DNA of 64,000 nt from a virus (Duplodnaviria; Caudoviricetes). Each line of letters opens with the position of its first letter. Position 1 is the stretch's first letter. Shown piece after piece: positions 916 to 17,111 of the stretch. Location of the stretch: positions 1-64,000 of IMG/VR virus record IMGVR_UViG_2597489997_000001; one strand, given 5' to 3'. The notes beneath the pieces were generated by a model. That model saw only the letters and a list, made by a program, of their open reading frames with translations, did no database searches and was not told the origin of the DNA. Position numbers and translations under genes: made by a program.

Positions 916-3117
916 TTATTCTGCATTCAGGCTGTCTTCGTTGTACGCTTCCAGCACAGAGTTCAGCATGTAGATACCTTTGCCGAACCACAGACGTGTG
1001 ATAGAGTACATGACAGACTTGGAAGTTGGAGAGTCTTCGCGGAACGAAGGCACGACTTCCCAGTTGGAGATTACAGAACCGAACAGATCACGAATACGTT
1101 TTTCAGCGCCGTCTTTAACGAAGGACAGATATCCTTCTTTACCGAGCTGGGTATCGCCAGAGACCTGAATCCAGATATCCTGGAGGATCTTCTCAACGAC
1201 AACACACTTCCAAACGTTAGTCAGGTCTTTCAGCACACTGTTGATGTTACCATATACAGTAGGCAGCGCCGGACGGCAGAACTGAGATTCAGTGATTGGA
1301 GTTACAGTGATGCAACCCTGGATCAGGTTGTTGGCAGCCGGGTCATCAGCTTCGAACTCAACGAATGGATCGTGAGCGATACGGAGGATACGGTTACCTT
1401 CATGGTCAGGCATGTCAGCCGCATAAATACGACCATCAGCACCACCACCTGCTACTGCGAATGCATACATGTTCTCGATGTTCAGAGAGAAACGACCCCA
1501 GGTAGGTTCGTTGATGTAACGAGCGTCCCAAAGGTTGATAGATGCACGACACGCTTCAGACTTGTATACTTCAGATTCAGGAATCATGACGATACGAGTG
1601 TTCAGCATGGTAGCTGTGGAATACAGTTCGTCCTGAGTTTTCTTACGGAGGTACTCAGTTGCACAAGGTACGACAATAATGTCTTTACGCTTGGACAGGA
1701 ACTGGATCATGATGTCTTTGATCTTCTGATTGTAACCAACGTCCCACATGAAAGAAGAACGGTTACGGATAACGTCTTTAACATCCAGTGAAGTGATGTA
1801 AGTCGTCAGGTAAGCCTCAATCAGCATCTGGTTCATTTCCCAGGCTTGCTTGTGGCTGATTACCAGATCAGGATCGGATACGTCTGCAACCCATGGACCA
1901 TCAATAGCTGGCAGCCAGGTAGTCGGAGCTTCTGGGAACTTACCATCTTTATCAGCGAACGGGTTGATGCCGCCGTTAGATTGCAGATAGTGGTTCATAG
2001 AGAAACGAGAACCGGTTACTTTACCAGCTTGGTCAAAGTTACCACCGAAGACGATGTGTTTGTATGGTTTGCCGTTATGGTTGACCAGATCAAACATGTT
2101 CATGATAGCGTGCTTAGGCAGACGCTTGCTCAGAACGTTCGGAGGTTGGTTAGTTGGATCGTCAGTACCGTATTCAGCAGCGTACAGTTCCTTAGCAACA
2201 TCGCTCAGGTTCTGGGTGTACATGAACACGTCGTCAAACGGTGCATCCTGAACTTCTACAGGACGGTTTACGTTATTACCAGTATACTGGTCGACAGCAA
2301 CCTTCAGGCCGTAACGAGTGTTGAATTCGTTAACAGTGTCGAACATAGTAAAGGTAGTATCCGGGGTACCGTTGATGGTATTAGCCGGAACACGTAAGCC
2401 ATTATCCAGCAGAACACCCATATTAAGGATGAATGGATAAGAACCGTTGGTCTGAACGAAACGAGCTACTTCGTTCCAGTCGGTCTGGAAGTTATGACCG
2501 ATAGAAATCCAGTTAGCGTTGTAAGTGTCACCAATACCACCGATTACTTCGGCCAGCGGATAGAACTTACCGTTAGTCCCTGTAGGGATGCCTGGAGTTT
2601 CATCGGTAGAGGTAACTTCGAATGCTTTCGCTTCGCCAACTTCGCCTTCAGATTTAAGAACGCCCGTGCAGACCCACTTACCAGCGATGGTCGCAGTGGT
2701 TTCATCTACCTTAGGGTTACCAGCAGCATCCAGAACGTAATCGCCGTTACCATCGCGAAGATAGTTAGGGATATCACCGGAGAAAATGGCCAGACCAATA
2801 ATAGTACGAGATTTCGCAGTATTGTTAGTCAGACGCTTGAAGCTGAATGAGGCTTGACCAGCCTGGCCCAGTTTCTGGATCGCGTACGTGACCGGGTTGT
2901 AATAAAGACCGAACGGGTCTGTCGTGTCACCAAACTTTGAAGTAAAGGTGCCAGTCGAAACCGTAGCTCGCTTGGTAGACCCACGAGGGGTTACTGCTGC
3001 GAAGTCCGGAAAGTGAGCAGGAGAGGAGATAACTGGGACCGCAGCCGGGAATGTCTCACGACTTACAATACCTTCATTAACTACTTTACCTGGAATCACT
3101 TTGTTAAAAGTTTCCAT
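916..3117 (-). CDS. Contractile tail sheath protein (phiKZ gp29-like)
   Basis: 733 aa; N-terminal FAAVTPRG..F..KFG and C-terminal WDVGY..K..M..FL..RKD segments typical of sheath proteins; divergent from virion genes. Confidence 0.85.
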   Translation of the reverse strand: METFNKVIPGKVVNEGIVSRETFPAAVPVISSPAHFPDFAAVTPRGSTKRATVSTGTFTSKFGDTTDPFGLYYNPVTYAIQKLGQAGQASFSFKRLTNNTAKSRTIIGLAIFSGDIPNYLRDGNGDYVLDAAGNPKVDETTATIAGKWVCTGVLKSEGEVGEAKAFEVTSTDETPGIPTGTNGKFYPLAEVIGGIGDTYNANWISIGHNFQTDWNEVARFVQTNGSYPFILNMGVLLDNGLRVPANTINGTPDTTFTMFDTVNEFNTRYGLKVAVDQYTGNNVNRPVEVQDAPFDDVFMYTQNLSDVAKELYAAEYGTDDPTNQPPNVLSKRLPKHAIMNMFDLVNHNGKPYKHIVFGGNFDQAGKVTGSRFSMNHYLQSNGGINPFADKDGKFPEAPTTWLPAIDGPWVADVSDPDLVISHKQAWEMNQMLIEAYLTTYITSLDVKDVIRNRSSFMWDVGYNQKIKDIMIQFLSKRKDIIVVPCATEYLRKKTQDELYSTATMLNTRIVMIPESEVYKSEACRASINLWDARYINEPTWGRFSLNIENMYAFAVAGGGADGRIYAADMPDHEGNRILRIAHDPFVEFEADDPAANNLIQGCITVTPITESQFCRPALPTVYGNINSVLKDLTNVWKCVVVEKILQDIWIQVSGDTQLGKEGYLSFVKDGAEKRIRDLFGSVISNWEVVPSFREDSPTSKSVMYSITRLWFGKGIYMLNSVLEAYNEDSLNAE

Positions 3118-11600: not shown

Positions 11601-12215
11601 TTATTCTGGATCGTTCTCACCGAGTAACTCGAGGATCTCGTCTACCGAGGTATGTTCATTGATGTAATGAATTTTGGTTTTACCCTTTAACTCGACGATA
11701 GCTAAAGAACGTAGATACTTCTCACGAAGGTTATCCCAGTTCTCTTTCTTCTTAAGGAAGAGATCTTTCTCATCCACTGCTCGGTTACAGTTAGCCAGAC
11801 GTTCTAAGAAAGTAGAATGATCAATGTCCAAGAAGAAGATATGGTCAGGATAGATATCGTGGCCTGCTGTTCTCAGCATCTCTTCATTGGCACGCAATAC
11901 TGCACTTGGCGGCATGGTAGGAGTTGATTGATAAACCATCGAACTCACAACACATCGATCGGAGATTAATCCCCCTTCACGATATTTACATACTACCTCA
12001 TCAAAGCAGTCAATACGTCCTGCAATGATCATCATCATTTCATAGTGCTTAGGGAGATAGTTCGCATTGTTCATGCGTTTCACTTCCGCAGCATGTTCAT
12101 TACCAGTATAAGGTTCGTTAACTGTAGCCCAACCAAGGCGAGCAATTAACTTTTTAGTCAACTCAGACTTACCTGCAAAATCCAAACCTTCTAGGGCTAC
12201 ATATTTACCAAACAT
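11601..12215 (-). CDS. tmk: Thymidylate kinase
   Basis: P-loop LEGLDFAGKS, NEP, SDR..SS.VYQ and PD..FFLD motifs. Confidence 0.9.
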   Translation of the reverse strand: MFGKYVALEGLDFAGKSELTKKLIARLGWATVNEPYTGNEHAAEVKRMNNANYLPKHYEMMMIIAGRIDCFDEVVCKYREGGLISDRCVVSSMVYQSTPTMPPSAVLRANEEMLRTAGHDIYPDHIFFLDIDHSTFLERLANCNRAVDEKDLFLKKKENWDNLREKYLRSLAIVELKGKTKIHYINEHTSVDEILELLGENDPE

Positions 12216-13697
12216 TTATACCTTTGACTCCATGATTAATGTACGAAGAACAATATAAAGCATCAGACTGGTACGGAGCGAAGTGATCTTAATCTCGGTC
12301 TTAATACCTGTCATTGCTTTAACAATCTCATCGCCTTCAGCTCTCAGTTTGAGAAGTAACGCGTTTGAGGATTTGCTCGACGTATAAGCACCACGTATTT
12401 TAAAGAACACGTGTTTAACATCCTGGTGCTTGATTCCATTTGCACTTATATATTCAAACAAGTGCGTAGTTACGTCATCAACAAACTCACGATACTTATC
12501 GCCCTTAGCATGTGCATACTGGGCTGGGAAATCCTTAAGGATTGATTCCAACTTATCTGCATCAGTTCGGGGGATTGCTTTGGCTGCATAAGTTGCAAGT
12601 TCCTGTTTAAAGAAACTGTTCTTATCGTTCAGAACGTTTGCAATATAGTTCTTAAACCGGTTAGCAGATTTCTGAACATCCTTGATATTCAGTTCACCAT
12701 CCAGTAAAGCCAAGCCTGAGTCTGTCTCAACGAGATCAACGGAATCTTTAATCTCATAAAGCACTTTGGTGTAATCGTTAATAACACCTTTAAGACGGGA
12801 CTCCATATCGTTCACCATGTAAACGATTTTCTTGTCATTATCCATCTTAGCAAAGGCATCAAAGTGAATACCCGTACGAGGGTCGATAATAAACTCACCA
12901 CGAGCACGGAATAGATCATTCCATGAACCATAGCGCTTGATATCAAACTTCAAGGAGAGCTTGTTATAGGCCGTTATAGCGACGTTCTGTTTTACCAGAT
13001 AGCCGAAGTAGTGGTTCATGATAGACGTCATGACACGGTAGTGGAATAACATGACCAGATTGATCAATGCTTCGTTCTTCATATTGCTAGGAAGATTGGA
13101 ATTCCACACACGGTTCATTAGGTAGATAATAGACAGGTTGAAAGCTTCAGAAGAAACTTTAAAGTCTTTATTGATCCACTTGGTCTTGATCAGTTCATCA
13201 CGGAGTCTTACTTCATCCACGTCGATAATGTCGCGGAAGAAAGTAACACGGTCAGATGTTTTAAAGAGTACACGATGAGTCCCCAGATAAGGAGAGCCAA
13301 AGAACTCAGTATGATCATTGTCTTTAGTTGCGAAACCATAGACATAACGACGAAGAGTCTGTACCCAGCGAGGAGTAATCTCTAAATCTTCAACCAGGTT
13401 ATCAAAGATATCCTTAACTGCGTTGTCGCGGTTATAGTTGAAGTTGGCCGGTAGAGCTTCTAGCCCAGACCAGTATTCGGGGATATTCGCAGCGGATTCA
13501 AATCCACTAACCCAGCCTGGAGGAATTGCAGGAGCAAAGAAGTCAGTTAAAGGCTTACCCTCTAAACCAGCTAATAGCTCACGCATCTCAACGTCGGACA
13601 TGGCACGTTCGTATTTCTCTTCATCCGTTAACTCAAGGAATCGATACTTTACTAATCCGCCCATGTGACTTTTAAAACGATCAGTAGCAGCAGACAT
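12216..13697 (-). CDS. Conserved phiKZ-like hypothetical protein
   Basis: 493 aa ORF, translationally coupled on both sides. Confidence 0.7.
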   Translation of the reverse strand: MSAATDRFKSHMGGLVKYRFLELTDEEKYERAMSDVEMRELLAGLEGKPLTDFFAPAIPPGWVSGFESAANIPEYWSGLEALPANFNYNRDNAVKDIFDNLVEDLEITPRWVQTLRRYVYGFATKDNDHTEFFGSPYLGTHRVLFKTSDRVTFFRDIIDVDEVRLRDELIKTKWINKDFKVSSEAFNLSIIYLMNRVWNSNLPSNMKNEALINLVMLFHYRVMTSIMNHYFGYLVKQNVAITAYNKLSLKFDIKRYGSWNDLFRARGEFIIDPRTGIHFDAFAKMDNDKKIVYMVNDMESRLKGVINDYTKVLYEIKDSVDLVETDSGLALLDGELNIKDVQKSANRFKNYIANVLNDKNSFFKQELATYAAKAIPRTDADKLESILKDFPAQYAHAKGDKYREFVDDVTTHLFEYISANGIKHQDVKHVFFKIRGAYTSSKSSNALLLKLRAEGDEIVKAMTGIKTEIKITSLRTSLMLYIVLRTLIMESKV

Positions 13698-14545
13698 TAT
13701 CTTTTCCTCGGAACAGAGTACTTGATTTGGTCAGACTTGCCTTTAGGATCAGCGTACTGGAGACGTTTCTTAATTTCGTTCTCATAGAAGTCTTTAAACT
13801 CTCTGTGAGCATCAGCATAACCTTGGATATCATCCTGAAGGTCATCGACGGTTACACCGAAACGAGAAACGGCTTCTTGCATCCCACGGCGACAGTTCTT
13901 ATAGATATAAGTTTTGACACCAAGCTCTACAAGCTCAGCAAACTTATCATACATCTTCGGTGGAATTACAGAGAAGTGGTCGTCATAGGACAATACCACT
14001 TTGGCAATCATGTTAAAGAGAGCAGAGCCAGCATCACGAATGAGGAAGGAGTTATTCCCCGTCATGGTGAATGTAGTAAAGGTACGTTGAACGTTACCAT
14101 CATCAAGACCGTTGATCAGACGACCTAATGCGTTGTTCATTTGACCTACACCGCAGGTTGCATAGTTGCTGAAGTTATTACCGTTAGCAATAGCTCTGTT
14201 AATGTTTCCAGGGTACACTTCGATAACCTGGAGAATACGTCTACCACCTGTTAAGAAATCAGGTACGTTGACGTGGATAATCCCACCTTGGAGATTCTCA
14301 ATGTTTGCACTACTAAGATCAATGATCTCTGTAGTACCACCTGCTACGTTCAGCAGAGGAGCAACCATCTTCAGAATAACCTTCTCTCTTATACCTTGTT
14401 CAATAGAGAACTCAGTATTGACAGGTCCCCAAATACCACCATAACCGTTGTTCGGATTATCGAAGGCTAACTTGAGTAAATAGTCAGAGATATCGGTAGG
14501 ACCATTAATGACGTATTCAATAGAAAAGTCTACTGGGTTTGACAT
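13697..14545 (-). CDS. Conserved hypothetical (possibly virion) protein
   Basis: 282 aa, AAGGA SD. Confidence 0.7.
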   Translation of the reverse strand: MSNPVDFSIEYVINGPTDISDYLLKLAFDNPNNGYGGIWGPVNTEFSIEQGIREKVILKMVAPLLNVAGGTTEIIDLSSANIENLQGGIIHVNVPDFLTGGRRILQVIEVYPGNINRAIANGNNFSNYATCGVGQMNNALGRLINGLDDGNVQRTFTTFTMTGNNSFLIRDAGSALFNMIAKVVLSYDDHFSVIPPKMYDKFAELVELGVKTYIYKNCRRGMQEAVSRFGVTVDDLQDDIQGYADAHREFKDFYENEIKKRLQYADPKGKSDQIKYSVPRKR

Positions 14546-14591
14546 AATTAGTCCTTCATTTTTGTAAGCTTACAAAATATCCAAAGACAAT

Positions 14592-14627
14592 CAAAAACCC
14601 CTACCCCACCCAAAGGCGAGATAGGGG
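14592..14627 (-). terminator. Intrinsic terminator ending the RNA island transcript
   Basis: Minus strand CCCCTATCTCGCC-TTTG-GGTGGGGTAGGGG followed by TTTTT. Confidence 0.8.
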
Positions 14628-14641
14628 CAGAGGTAGTGTCA

Positions 14642-15250
14642 TTGCATACACCCTAGGGCAGACTCGATGGACTATATAGGAGCTACCCATAAATCCGACC
14701 AAATCTACCAAAGGCTGTCTACATTGATGTCAACAACTTCTCCCAGGCATGGGAGCAGACCGTTTGTAGCCTGCATCGTATAATGCCTTATACTGTCAGG
14801 TATGCTACGCTGTTTAGTCCCGTTAGTCTTTCGGGGAGTCGCTCACGGTTAAGGCGCGACTAGACATGACGGCTTCACTAATGCTGGAGACATTATCGTG
14901 AAGACCCGTTTCGTCTGCAATTTATATCCCCGTCAGACTCGTCAGATGTTCCGGGCGTTCTCTCCCACCAGAGAGTAGGTCGAGTGAAACGATGTCGCGA
15001 GGTCAACTGTAAGTTGCCGATTAATCCATCAAGTCTTTGACAAGGGATATTAAATTCGCTTTCGTTCGAATCACTCTGTTTGTTAGGGAAGCTAACCAAA
15101 GTTACTTTAACTACGGTCTGTGGATAACCTAGGGTTAAAAGATAAGTTTGACGGCTAGCTCCCTAATGGATTGCACCATCCTGTTCACTACGCTTCGAGT
15201 ACTCGGGTATGAGATATTATTACTCAGCTTGAGATCGACAGGTGATGCAA
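14642..15250 (-). ncRNA. Candidate large structured ncRNA (about 610 nt)
   Basis: No credible ORF; terminal helix 14642-14652 with 15241-15250, nested long-range helices, terminator 15 nt downstream. Confidence 0.7.
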
Positions 15251-15260
15251 AGGAAGAAGG

Positions 15261-15580
15261 TCCCGATTAGATCGTTACCTAAAAAGGGTGCGCGGGCTTG
15301 TCAGTAGGCGGCGCATACGCCACCAGTACCGGACCCGCAGCTATAGTCGCCATGCTGGCGACACCCACCAGGAACTACTACTGCGACAGGACTATGGCCT
15401 GAGTTCATTCCTGGATTTACGACCGGGAGGGTAAACCCCCGGTATTTGCCTTCCCATCGGCCACACCAGCCACGGAAGGTCTTACAATCCCAGCATGTCA
15501 ACTGGCACACCCCTCTTAACCCACATCGCTATCCGCAGGGAGTTAAGCAAGACATACACTTCTCGACATACAATCGGGAT
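15261..15580 (-). ncRNA. Candidate GC-rich structured ncRNA (about 320 nt)
   Basis: Terminal helix TCCCGATT/AATCGGGA, many strong internal hairpins, no credible ORF. Confidence 0.65.
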
Positions 15581-15584
15581 ATTG

Positions 15585-15995
15585 TCATTTCACCAGATCG
15601 TACTTAGTATCCATCTCGGCACGTTTGCTATTGCTTACGTATTCCTCAAAGGTACATTTATACCAGTCACCCTCACCGATTTCCCGGCTATAGAAGATAA
15701 CTGCTGGGTCGTAAGCTTTCTTAGAAGGCTTATCCACAGGACGGTGAAACACTTGTAATGTATGACCCAATTCTGATATCAGATAGGCTTCATGATCATT
15801 ACAGATAAACGTTGGCTGTACACCATGTCCGTGTTCCACCACAATAATGGTGTTCTTCGGCATGTCGGCATACTTACCACCGTACTCACCCATATTAGTC
15901 AAACGGTTAATCACCGAGTTATGAGTAATATGGAAGAATTTTTCCCGGTTGGCTATTTCGCCAGTTGGGTTGCTTGAAACAAGCTTCAATAACAT
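15585..15995 (-). CDS. Hypothetical protein
   Basis: 136 aa with GAGG SD. Confidence 0.7.
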   Translation of the reverse strand: MLLKLVSSNPTGEIANREKFFHITHNSVINRLTNMGEYGGKYADMPKNTIIVVEHGHGVQPTFICNDHEAYLISELGHTLQVFHRPVDKPSKKAYDPAVIFYSREIGEGDWYKCTFEEYVSNSKRAEMDTKYDLVK

Positions 15996-16039
15996 AGTAA
16001 CCTCAATTGCTTCTTATTGTTGGAGATTAAATGAAATTA

Positions 16040-16116
16040 TGGTGGCCCCGGCGTGACTTGAACACGCGACCAAGCGATTATGAGTCACCTGCTCTAACCG
16101 TCTGAGCTACGGGGCC
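16040..16116 (-). tRNA. tRNA-Ile2 (CAU, lysidine type)
   Basis: Cloverleaf GGCCCCG..GACTCATAATCG..GGGGCCACCA, closely resembling enterobacterial tRNA-Ile2 rather than tRNA-Met; encoded CCA. Confidence 0.9.
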
Positions 16117-16120
16117 GGAA

Positions 16121-16196
16121 TGGCGCGCCCTACAGGATTCGAACCTGTGACCAATAGCTTAGAAGGCTACTGCTCTATCCACTGAGCTAAGAGCGC
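16121..16196 (-). tRNA. tRNA-Arg (UCU)
   Basis: Cloverleaf, anticodon loop CTTCTAA, GGTTCGAATCC T arm, CCA. Confidence 0.95.
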
Positions 16197-16204
16197 CGAA
16201 TTAC

Positions 16205-16471
16205 TTATTCTGCTACCTTAGCCAGATTTGCTTTATGGGAAGCCACTACAGGAACTAAACCCTGGAACCCATGCTTGTTGTACTGACCGTCAACGAAGAT
16301 CTGAGGAACAGTTTGAACTTTCTCTCCACACATCTCGCTGAGTTTAGCACCATCAATACCAGCTTCCACGATATTGACATATTCGTGAGTGATGCCTTCA
16401 ACACCTTCAACCAGTGCTTTAGCGCGATCACACCATGGACAATTAGGCTTACCATAAATTACAACATTCAT
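16205..16471 (-). CDS. grx: Glutaredoxin
   Basis: CPWC active site and TVPQIFVDG motif. Confidence 0.9.
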   Translation of the reverse strand: MNVVIYGKPNCPWCDRAKALVEGVEGITHEYVNIVEAGIDGAKLSEMCGEKVQTVPQIFVDGQYNKHGFQGLVPVVASHKANLAKVAE

Positions 16472-16701
16472 TTTGGGATTCCGTTTAAAGGAGAATGATA
16501 GAACATACCTCTGGATGGCATATTCAATATACCTGCTGGTTTCGTTGCAAACACGTTGTAGGGTTTACTTTCGCGGATACCTACCTCTAACGTTAATCTG
16601 GCAATCAGTGGATTAAAGAAACTAAAACCAGTAACTGTTAAATGTGGTTGCTCAGAAACATATTTAAAATCATTGGGAACAAAACCTTCTGGCACTTCCA
16701 T
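16468..16701 (-). CDS. Hypothetical protein
   Basis: 77 aa, AAGGA SD, ATGA overlap with grx. Confidence 0.6.
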   Translation of the reverse strand: MEVPEGFVPNDFKYVSEQPHLTVTGFSFFNPLIARLTLEVGIRESKPYNVFATKPAGILNMPSRGMFYHSPLNGIPK

Positions 16702-16732
16702 AATGATTCCTTAGAAGCAGTGGTCATAAATA

Positions 16733-16821
16733 TGGCAGAGAGTATGGGATTCGAACCCATGAGCCCCGAAGGACTGCCTCCTTAGCAGGGAGGTGACTTA
16801 AACCAACTCATCCAACTCTCT
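16733..16821 (-). tRNA. tRNA-Ser (GCU)
   Basis: Long variable arm, anticodon loop CTGCTAA, G73, CCA. Confidence 0.95.
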
Positions 16822-16825
16822 AATG

Positions 16826-16901
16826 TGGCGCTCGTGACAGGGCTCGAACCTGTGACATACGGATTAACAGTCCGCCGTTCTACCGACTGAACTACACGAG
16901 C
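16826..16901 (-). tRNA. tRNA-Asn (GUU)
   Basis: Anticodon arm GCGGA-CTGTTAA-TCCGT, G73, CCA. Confidence 0.95.
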
Positions 16902-17111
16902 TAAATTCTTGCCCCTCATTAGGATTCCGCCTAATGTTTAACCGGCTGGCCGCCGGGGTACAGTCTCAACAGAGTTACTTTAGGATTATTGTCCTAAAGA
17001 CAATCATGGGGATTTTAACCCACACTTCTACTAGACCTAGTCCTCTACCAACGAGGTGGAGTCGATACCACCCTTCTTAAAGCACTATCATAATAACACT
17101 TTAAGAAAGGT

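Follow-up and report, generated by a model that had tools for sequence, protein, structure and literature searches.

The first 64,000 nucleotides (nt) of a 284,757-base-pair (bp) virus record, IMGVR_UViG_2597489997_000001 (G000), hereafter the window, contain at positions 14546-15584 a gap without any open reading frame (ORF) of at least 70 amino acids (aa) on either strand, where the GC content is 0.48-0.56 compared with ~0.42 in the flanks. The flanking ORFs and four nearby transfer RNA (tRNA) genes, the latter 0.5-1.3 kb upstream of the element described here, are all on the minus strand. We report that this gap probably encodes a structured minus-strand phage RNA of ~0.97 kb that is cut by a hammerhead ribozyme in its own interior. 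The locus is composed as follows.

11601-12215: thymidylate kinase gene
13697-14545, minus strand: gene of 849 nt for a DUF7484 / phrog_3179 protein, downstream of the RNA, annotated in relatives as virion structural protein
15564-14590, minus strand: whole candidate RNA, ~975 nt, delimited by the ORF-free gap, syntenic gaps in 13 other loci, alignment and substitution pattern
16040-16901, minus strand: genes for tRNA-Met, tRNA-Arg, tRNA-Ser and tRNA-Asn, upstream of the RNA, with a glutaredoxin gene among them
16205-16471, minus strand: the glutaredoxin gene, within the tRNA cluster and upstream of the RNA

The homologue set comprises 14 loci including the window, 13 of them complete and one (L093) partial, representing roughly eight lineages. 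Alignment of these loci reveals, in the middle of the RNA, a complete type I hammerhead with core and stems, for which self-cleavage is predicted. Its elements, all on the minus strand, are listed below.

14955-14864: type I hammerhead ribozyme, from sub-threshold Rfam matches, alignment and pair counts
14955-14952 with 14932-14929: pseudoknot of the 5′ flank of stem I with the stem II loop, CCCG/CGGG in the window
14949-14946 (ACAU) with 14867-14864 (AUGU): stem I
14945-14939: core CUGACGA
14938-14934 with 14917-14913: stem II (GUCUG...CAGAC)
14912-14909: GAAA
14909-14869: stem III, long, with A-U and C-G as its closing pairs
14868: C17 of the cleavage triplet GUC, with the predicted cut between 14868 and 14867

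The order, stem I 5′ strand, core, stem II hairpin, GAAA, stem III hairpin, GUC and stem I 3′ strand, leaves stem I open while stems II and III are both capped, as in the type I topology. In the MAFFT alignment, CUGANGA, GAAA, ACGGG, CCGUC and the pairs A15.1-U16.1 and C15.2-G16.2 are invariant in 14/14 loci. Both strands of the hammerhead core, C3-U4-G5-A6-N7-G8-A9 and G12-A13-A14, are present, and the cleavage triplet, of NUH type, is GUC in all 14. The three core-adjacent pairs, formation of which is the acceptance rule of Perreault et al. 2011 (PMC3088659), are always formed among the 13 distinct rows (UA:10, CG:2 and GC:1 for stem I, GC for stem II and AU for stem III).

The ribozyme structure with its pseudoknot was written by hand and counted on the unfitted 14-sequence MAFFT alignment. 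Across its 34 pairs, 83.7% of cells are paired vs 72.0% after shuffling (reached in 0/500 shuffles), controls with the structure slid along the alignment give 28-52%, and 22 pairs are changed on both sides, including four, two and five in stems I, II and III, respectively. The pseudoknot, which provides the tertiary contact that joins stem I to stem II, spans 4-6 bp across the loci and is 97.4% paired, with compensatory changes in 4/6 pairs. Indeed, the CCCG/CGGG of the window is replaced elsewhere by CGUCGA/UCGACG, UGUCG/CGACA, CAUCGC/GCGAUG or GUUCG/CGAAC. With a covariance model of the ribozyme segment (R1), scores are 89-139 bits for the 14 loci, compared with at most 33 bits for ordinary phage hammerheads.

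The ribozyme is embedded in further conserved structure, again on the minus strand throughout.

15547-15564: conserved 5′ block (GAGAAGUGUAUGUCUUGC), from the alignment
15449-15485: invariant GUAAGACC motif, in 13/13 complete homologues and L093, and helix a (15479-15474 with 15454-15449)
15423-15442: hairpin b (CCGGG/CCCGG)
15368-15414: helix c (CCAGGAA/UUCCUGG) and inner hairpin c′ (15401-15398 with 15390-15387)
15286-15366: helix d (GGGUG 15366-15362 with CACCC 15290-15286), by eye, which encloses a variable subdomain
15171-15250 and 15083-15166: two long local hairpins of the minimum-free-energy structures, a window-lineage insertion without counterpart in the 13 relatives
14982-15076: helix e (15076-15066 with 14992-14982), which closes a three-way junction in which GAACGAAAGC and GCGAYAUC are conserved
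14960-14975: hairpin f (CUCUC/GAGAG), the immediate 5′ neighbour of the ribozyme, with a loop of the UGGUGG type, by eye
14838-14860: hairpin H3a (GUCGC/GCGAC), the 13-nt loop of which, GCCYUAACYGUGA, is conserved, 98.4% of cells paired
14629-14867: 3′ domain, the predicted post-cleavage fragment, in 10/13 complete homologues
14590-14628: intrinsic terminator, a stem followed by UUUUUGAUUG, conserved and covarying in all of the 13 complete homologues

For the 5′ domain, the junction and the 3′ domain, structures were obtained with RNAalifold on MAFFT alignments, followed by pair counting. The 5′ domain (27 pairs, 15 compensatory) is 90.7% paired vs 80.5% in shuffles, helix e with the junction (11 pairs, 9 changed on both sides) 92.3% vs 67.5%, and the 3′ domain including the terminator (45 pairs, 20 changed on both sides) 95.1% vs 84.8%, with 0/500 shuffles reaching the observed value in each case. 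Within the 5′ domain, six of the eight pairs of helix a are changed on both sides, while helices c and c′ (helices 3 and 4) are paired in 92% and 90% of cells, with five and three such pairs. By eye, hairpin b recurs as CUCGG/CCGAG, CCUGG/CCAGG, CUGAG/CUCAG and CCAGC/GCUGG, and helix d as GGGUG/UACCC, GGAUG/CAUCC (L085), GGGCG/UGCCC (L006) and GGGCA/UGCCC (L018). The subdomain closed by helix d measures ~70 nt in the window and ~190 nt in L002, and is cut down in L005 and L067. A pairing of a 5′ GGUUAAG segment with the 13-nt loop GCCYUAACYGUGA, by eye compensatory between the window and L002, was dropped, as the L005 group has no counterpart.

The terminator stem (14628-14597; 14 pairs, eight of them GC) with its tail TTTTTGATTG has the make-up of a Rho-independent terminator, and the motif is unique in the window. 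Elsewhere in the record, a minus-strand stretch of 41 nt (G000:C1:109663-109703) is 85% identical to this terminator hairpin. The 3′ end of the RNA is placed at the U-run of the terminator and the 5′ end, at ~15564, at the onset of conservation. A sigma-70 promoter scan, outside of which lie the phage's own polymerases, found two candidates vs 3.3 expected from shuffles.

Homologues were gathered by blastn, tblastn, a protein-anchored scan and hammerhead-based pattern scans. With the DUF7484 protein as tblastn query, 183 phage records were matched, nearly all of them jumbo phages, with identities of 68-84% in a close clade and ~42-43% in Pseudomonas phage EL and Erwinia phage RisingSun. Because these relatives are nearly all jumbo phages, including EL and RisingSun, the phage behind the record is assigned to the phiKZ-like (chimallivirus) jumbo phages. 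Gaps poor in ORFs, 0.76-1.56 kb long and in syntenic position upstream of the DUF7484 gene, are present in Kosakonia phage Kc263 (L001), Klebsiella phage N1M2 (L002), Serratia phages Sureiya and Yubaba (L003 and L091), Shewanella phage SXP01 (L085), Pantoea phage Survivor (L086), Erwinia phage AH04 (L087) and the IMG/VR contigs L004, L005 and L006. The hammerhead-based scan of IMG/VR returned 81 matches in 76 stretches. Of the 81 matches, only five satisfy an extended pattern specific to the family, and the contigs that carry these five are all 260-277 kb long; L018 and L067 were added from these. In a metagenome collection, the extended pattern recovered four stretches, namely the new partial locus L093, a copy identical to L006, and two hammerheads unrelated to the family.

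All 14 loci possess the 5′ domain, the junction and the ribozyme. The 3′ domain is missing from three of the 13 complete homologues (L004, L086 and L085), in which the terminator hairpin lies within ~15 nt of the cut site and the predicted 3′ product is 56-59 nt. The upstream neighbour of the RNA differs among the relatives, being tRNA-Met, a thioredoxin-like ORF or a hypothetical ORF. In L002, L003 and L091 tRNA-Met is immediately upstream and the conserved 5′ block begins ~16 nt after it, and in the window the block begins 21 nt after an ORF of 136 aa (15585-15995, minus strand) located between tRNA-Met and the RNA. This ORF has no Pfam or PHROG match; a similarly positioned ORF in L001 is annotated as thioredoxin-domain protein. 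R1 detects a single copy of the ribozyme in G000 and likewise in the record behind L001.

The element is missing, according to blastn and both covariance models, from three Aeromonas relatives (L088-L090) that possess the same flanking gene, and a model of the 5′ domain (R2) returned nothing significant in these three phages or in three more distant chimalliviruses. Two weak R1 matches, of 18 bits in phage EL and of 17 bits in the record behind L088, were rejected, as the hammerhead core is missing from both and the latter consists only of an H3a-like hairpin. Around ~1990-2130 of L088 (Aeromonas phage pAEv1810), this hairpin, GGAAC-GCCCUAACAGUGA-GUUCC, carries the conserved 13-nt loop of the family and is accompanied by the GUAAGACC motif; an HNH endonuclease gene is inserted beside it. 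The L088 locus may represent a ribozyme-less or decayed relative of the RNA. As a further observation on the downstream side, ~560 nt with an opposite-strand ORF are inserted between the RNA terminator and the DUF7484 gene in L005 (~2410-2990), L018 and L067. Downstream of the insertion is a conserved block, …GAUCAUAUGAGCUCGUUCCAUAU…CCUAGGAUGG…CUAUUUCGAAAUAG, that several other relatives share and that may serve as promoter or leader of the operon.

From these data we propose the following sequence of events. The RNA would be made as a single transcript, running on from the tRNA/glutaredoxin cluster or starting just after it, and would end at the terminator before the DUF7484 structural-gene operon. 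The pseudoknot between the stem I 5′ flank and the stem II loop would keep the hammerhead in its active shape, and self-cleavage in vivo would take place between 14868 and 14867. This would release a 5′ product of ~700 nt, comprising the 5′ domain, the three-way junction and the ribozyme and ending in a 2′,3′-cyclic phosphate, as well as a 3′ product of ~270-280 nt with a 5′-OH start, comprising the 3′ domain and the terminator hairpin. The 5′ product is most likely the conserved working unit, because the 5′ domain and ribozyme are present in 14/14 loci while the 3′ product amounts to only the terminator hairpin in three homologues. Most likely, the purpose of the cut is then to free the 5′ product from the terminator or the 3′ domain. 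A search for RtcB in G000, in which positive controls were detected, found none, and hence any religation would need a host enzyme. As to the cellular role, we would guess by analogy that the RNA acts in trans, as one of the GOLLD/ROOL sort with a link to the tRNA island.

We tentatively entertain a more far-reaching possibility, that of a new functional class of ornate phage RNA, the maturation or activity of which depends on its own hammerhead. It might then constitute an undescribed class of 0.7-1.0 kb, occurring only in one clade of nucleus-forming jumbo phages that infect enteric bacteria, and be the first large structured non-coding RNA with a hammerhead of its own, a proposal we regard as speculative. 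Cleavage could in such a case, again with clear reservation, be an obligatory maturation step that frees an RNA of ~700 nt, either forming particles or directed at tRNA/translation, the 2′,3′-cyclic-phosphate end of which is protected. Alternatively, the large domain may gate the cleavage, representing a natural allosteric hammerhead.

Several points speak against a self-cleaving structured RNA at this locus. The pair counts for the domains come from structures derived from the very sequences on which they were tested, the shuffles ignore phylogeny and the set holds only ~8 lineages. Moreover, when further pair types are taken as the measure, significance is reached for none of the 5′ domain (95/500), the junction (206/500) and the 3′ domain (43/500), and helices b, d and f were recognized by eye rather than with a counting tool. 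For the ribozyme, the Rfam hammerhead model RF00163 scores 16.6 bits in the window and 23.7 bits at the homologous position of L005, and thus the gathering threshold (34) is not reached in either. These low scores arise because the long loops in stems II and III are costly, and the threshold is a convention of the curators, not a biochemical criterion. Folding of the window ribozyme segment as a single sequence does not recover stems I and II and gives no unusual stability (z -0.9); in the preferred fold, CAGAC is instead paired with a GUCU immediately 3′ of the cut site. The stem I and the pseudoknot of the window are each only 4 bp. The ends of the RNA and the cleavage are themselves predictions. 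Finally, the RNA is dispensable for such phages, as the three Aeromonas relatives have the same flanking gene without the element.

A different view of the same data, which we consider unlikely although it deserves attention, is that the ribozyme is an ordinary phage transcript-processing hammerhead and that the surrounding structure is a long 3′ untranslated region or leader instead of a trans-acting RNA, setting the stability or expression of either the tRNA/glutaredoxin transcript or the structural operon. Gene-flanking hammerheads are indeed common in the genomes of phages and prophages, where they are considered to cleave long transcripts (PMC3088659). Congruently, dozens of hammerheads occur upstream of genes in IMG/VR contigs, and in three homologues the cut would just remove a terminator hairpin. 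However, a ~600-nt 5′ domain with many covarying helices far exceeds the needs of a processing site, and the terminator separates the RNA from the downstream operon. The RNA is furthermore kept while its upstream neighbour varies, and it is better conserved than the neighbouring gene (90.3% vs 85.4%).

We deem it improbable that the locus is foremost an allosteric hammerhead, with the 5′ domain sensing a ligand, protein or tRNA and thereby controlling the pseudoknot and cleavage. Such an arrangement would be compatible with hairpin f and the three-way junction being placed directly against the pseudoknot strand, and with the competing fold that blocks stem II in the window. The alternative fold is nevertheless predicted from one sequence and is not significant, and a ligand is without support.

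A preliminary description of the window proposed a ROOL/GOLLD-like RNA of ~610 nt on the plus strand, at 14642-15250, with five listed helices and a terminator directly after its 3′ end. The notion of a large structured non-coding RNA near phage tRNAs held, as the region is conserved, ORF-free, GC-enriched and strongly folding, within limits of ~15564-14590. The orientation did not: the RNA is encoded on the minus strand, as evident from the hammerhead core, the minus-strand terminator, the better folding of the minus strand (z -4.6 vs -2.7 for the plus strand, 20 shuffles each) and the conserved G-U pairs, which would read A-C on the plus strand (UG:12 and GU:11 in the 5′ domain, GU:9 in the 3′ domain, UG:7 in the ribozyme). 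The sole plus-strand terminator candidate, at 15561-15579, is weak and 310 nt away from 15250.

The five helices are each Watson-Crick complementary, and, taken singly, the 8-mer and the 7-mer match would seldom arise by chance in their particular segments (4/200 and 7/200 shuffles). The number of inverted repeats in 14642-15250 is nonetheless that expected by chance, with eight 7-mers vs 9.9 ± 4.1 (at least eight in 207/300 dinucleotide shuffles) and two 8-mers vs 2.7 (194/300), or, for repeats at least 300 nt apart, five 7-mers vs 2.9 (65/300) and two 8-mers vs 0.7 (48/300). In the ensemble of the full minus-strand RNA, the pair probability is 0 for the terminal helix (14642-14652 with 15241-15250), for 14679-14685 with 15156-15162 and for the pseudoknot 14669-14674 with 14815-14820, ~0.22 for 14756-14763 with 15113-15120, and 0.1-0.2 for 14919-14930 with 15044-15056, the last of which is not conserved among relatives. 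The stronger local hairpins at 15171-15250 and 15083-15166 capture the 5′ partners of three long-range helices. These three have no counterpart in eight other distinct long-form homologues, where the best runs of 4-7 nt equal those of shuffles, and the proposed pseudoknot is paired in 63% of cells vs 56.5% in shuffles (49/500). Considering also that no ROOL or GOLLD match was found in Rfam, even at an expectation value (E) of up to 10, a plus-strand RNA of this kind is highly improbable despite the complementary segments and the neighbouring tRNA genes. The most informative part, the conserved hammerhead of the mid-region, had been overlooked.

A missed or decayed protein-coding gene can practically be dismissed, since mismatches in the RNA region are spread evenly over positions modulo three (33/29/31 for L002 vs L003, 54/55/57 for L006 vs L087) compared with 11/2/110 and 26/16/130 in the adjacent gene, which aligns free of gaps, since gap runs in the RNA are mostly not multiples of three (9/9 and 12/14, respectively), and since no ORF of at least 70 aa is present on either strand and the ORFs of the gap match no Pfam or PHROG family, which leaves in its favour an annotated coding sequence of 63 aa over the ribozyme in L001 and one of 170 aa on the opposite strand in L002. 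Deposited small "hypothetical protein" coding sequences overlie the ribozyme or the 5′ domain in L001 (3277-3468), L002 (3373-3885) and Klebsiella phage Miami. They are probably spurious, as they are not conserved among the relatives.

To our knowledge, very few bacterial or phage RNA classes of at least 0.6 kb with complex conserved folds are known, and the RNA-only assemblies of GOLLD, ROOL and OLE have been shown only recently. The present candidate class is found in culturable jumbo phages with tractable hosts, and the RNA is modular, in that its 3′ domain is optional and one subdomain is variable. Its built-in predicted ribozyme offers an immediate biochemical read-out and a defined end. 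The findings also have bearing on annotation: in present genome annotations the element is overlaid by small, probably spurious ORFs, and hammerheads with long stem II and III loops slip below the Rfam thresholds.

Turning to known RNAs, the Rfam scan returned no family besides tRNAs at the gathering score in the whole window, congruent with the other suggestion of the preliminary description, a new class of large RNA. At E up to 10, the region 14300-17100 adds only the sub-threshold hammerhead. ROOL, GOLLD, OLE, raiA, group I/II introns and other large RNAs of Rfam gave no match at E of up to 1 in six homologous loci. Open-access papers and preprints yielded no account of a hammerhead or of a large structured RNA from these phages.

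ROOL and GOLLD are phage-encoded near tRNA islands, with one GOLLD example positioned downstream of a Met-tRNA, as described by Kretsch et al. 2025 (PMC12286853). The candidate RNA resembles them in its size of 0.7-1 kb, its intricate fold, its phage origin, its tRNA-island neighbourhood, with a position directly after tRNA-Met in three relatives, and the variable subdomain within a conserved frame, while neither covariance model matches it. It differs in containing a predicted self-cleaving ribozyme, which is reported for neither class, and in being carried by nucleus-forming jumbo phages of Gram-negative enteric hosts.

Among hammerheads, the closest described relatives are the type I forms of phages and prophages (PMC3088659; Rfam clan CL00010), which have the same core, three stems, GUC triplet, type I topology, stem I/II pseudoknot and phage setting. 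A pseudoknot is stated there for about 40% of hammerheads, and phage hammerheads are regarded as probably processing long transcripts. Compared with those forms, the pseudoknot strand of the present ribozyme comes from a long stem II loop (16-19 nt), the long stem III has two tiers and a conserved UCCAG/UCCAA loop, there are only ~4 bp in stem I, and the ribozyme resides within a conserved structured RNA of ~1 kb, not just upstream of a gene. The IMG/VR scan also revealed dozens of classic type I hammerheads (among L009-L084, e.g. L040, L043, L059 and L065) with the stem II loop UGAAAAUU or similar. In unrelated phage contigs they precede start codons by 20-60 nt, at times with two to three per locus, a placement that agrees with the published idea of long-transcript processing.

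A hammerhead of the same subtype was detected with R1 in Klebsiella phage phiKp_32 (L106; LC768500.1, ~1510-1590, plus strand), which belongs to a more distant chimallivirus group, within an ORF-free gap of 989 nt (1261-2249) that is 94-100% identical in seven records from six phages. Its RF00008 score is 24.2 bits vs a threshold of 48.5. The ribozyme is located ~250 nt into the gap compared with ~700 nt in the candidate RNA, its orientation relative to the DUF7484 gene is opposite, and the 5′-domain model R2 finds no match in this gap; the flanking RNA appears unrelated to the 5′ domain described here. The two ribozymes themselves are alike: in phiKp_32, where stem I is AUUAU/AUAAU, a CGUCG 5′ of stem I pairs with a CGACG in the stem II loop and GUC is followed by A at the cut site, and both are situated in a non-coding chimallivirus gap of ~1 kb, no more than ~2 kb from the DUF7484 gene.

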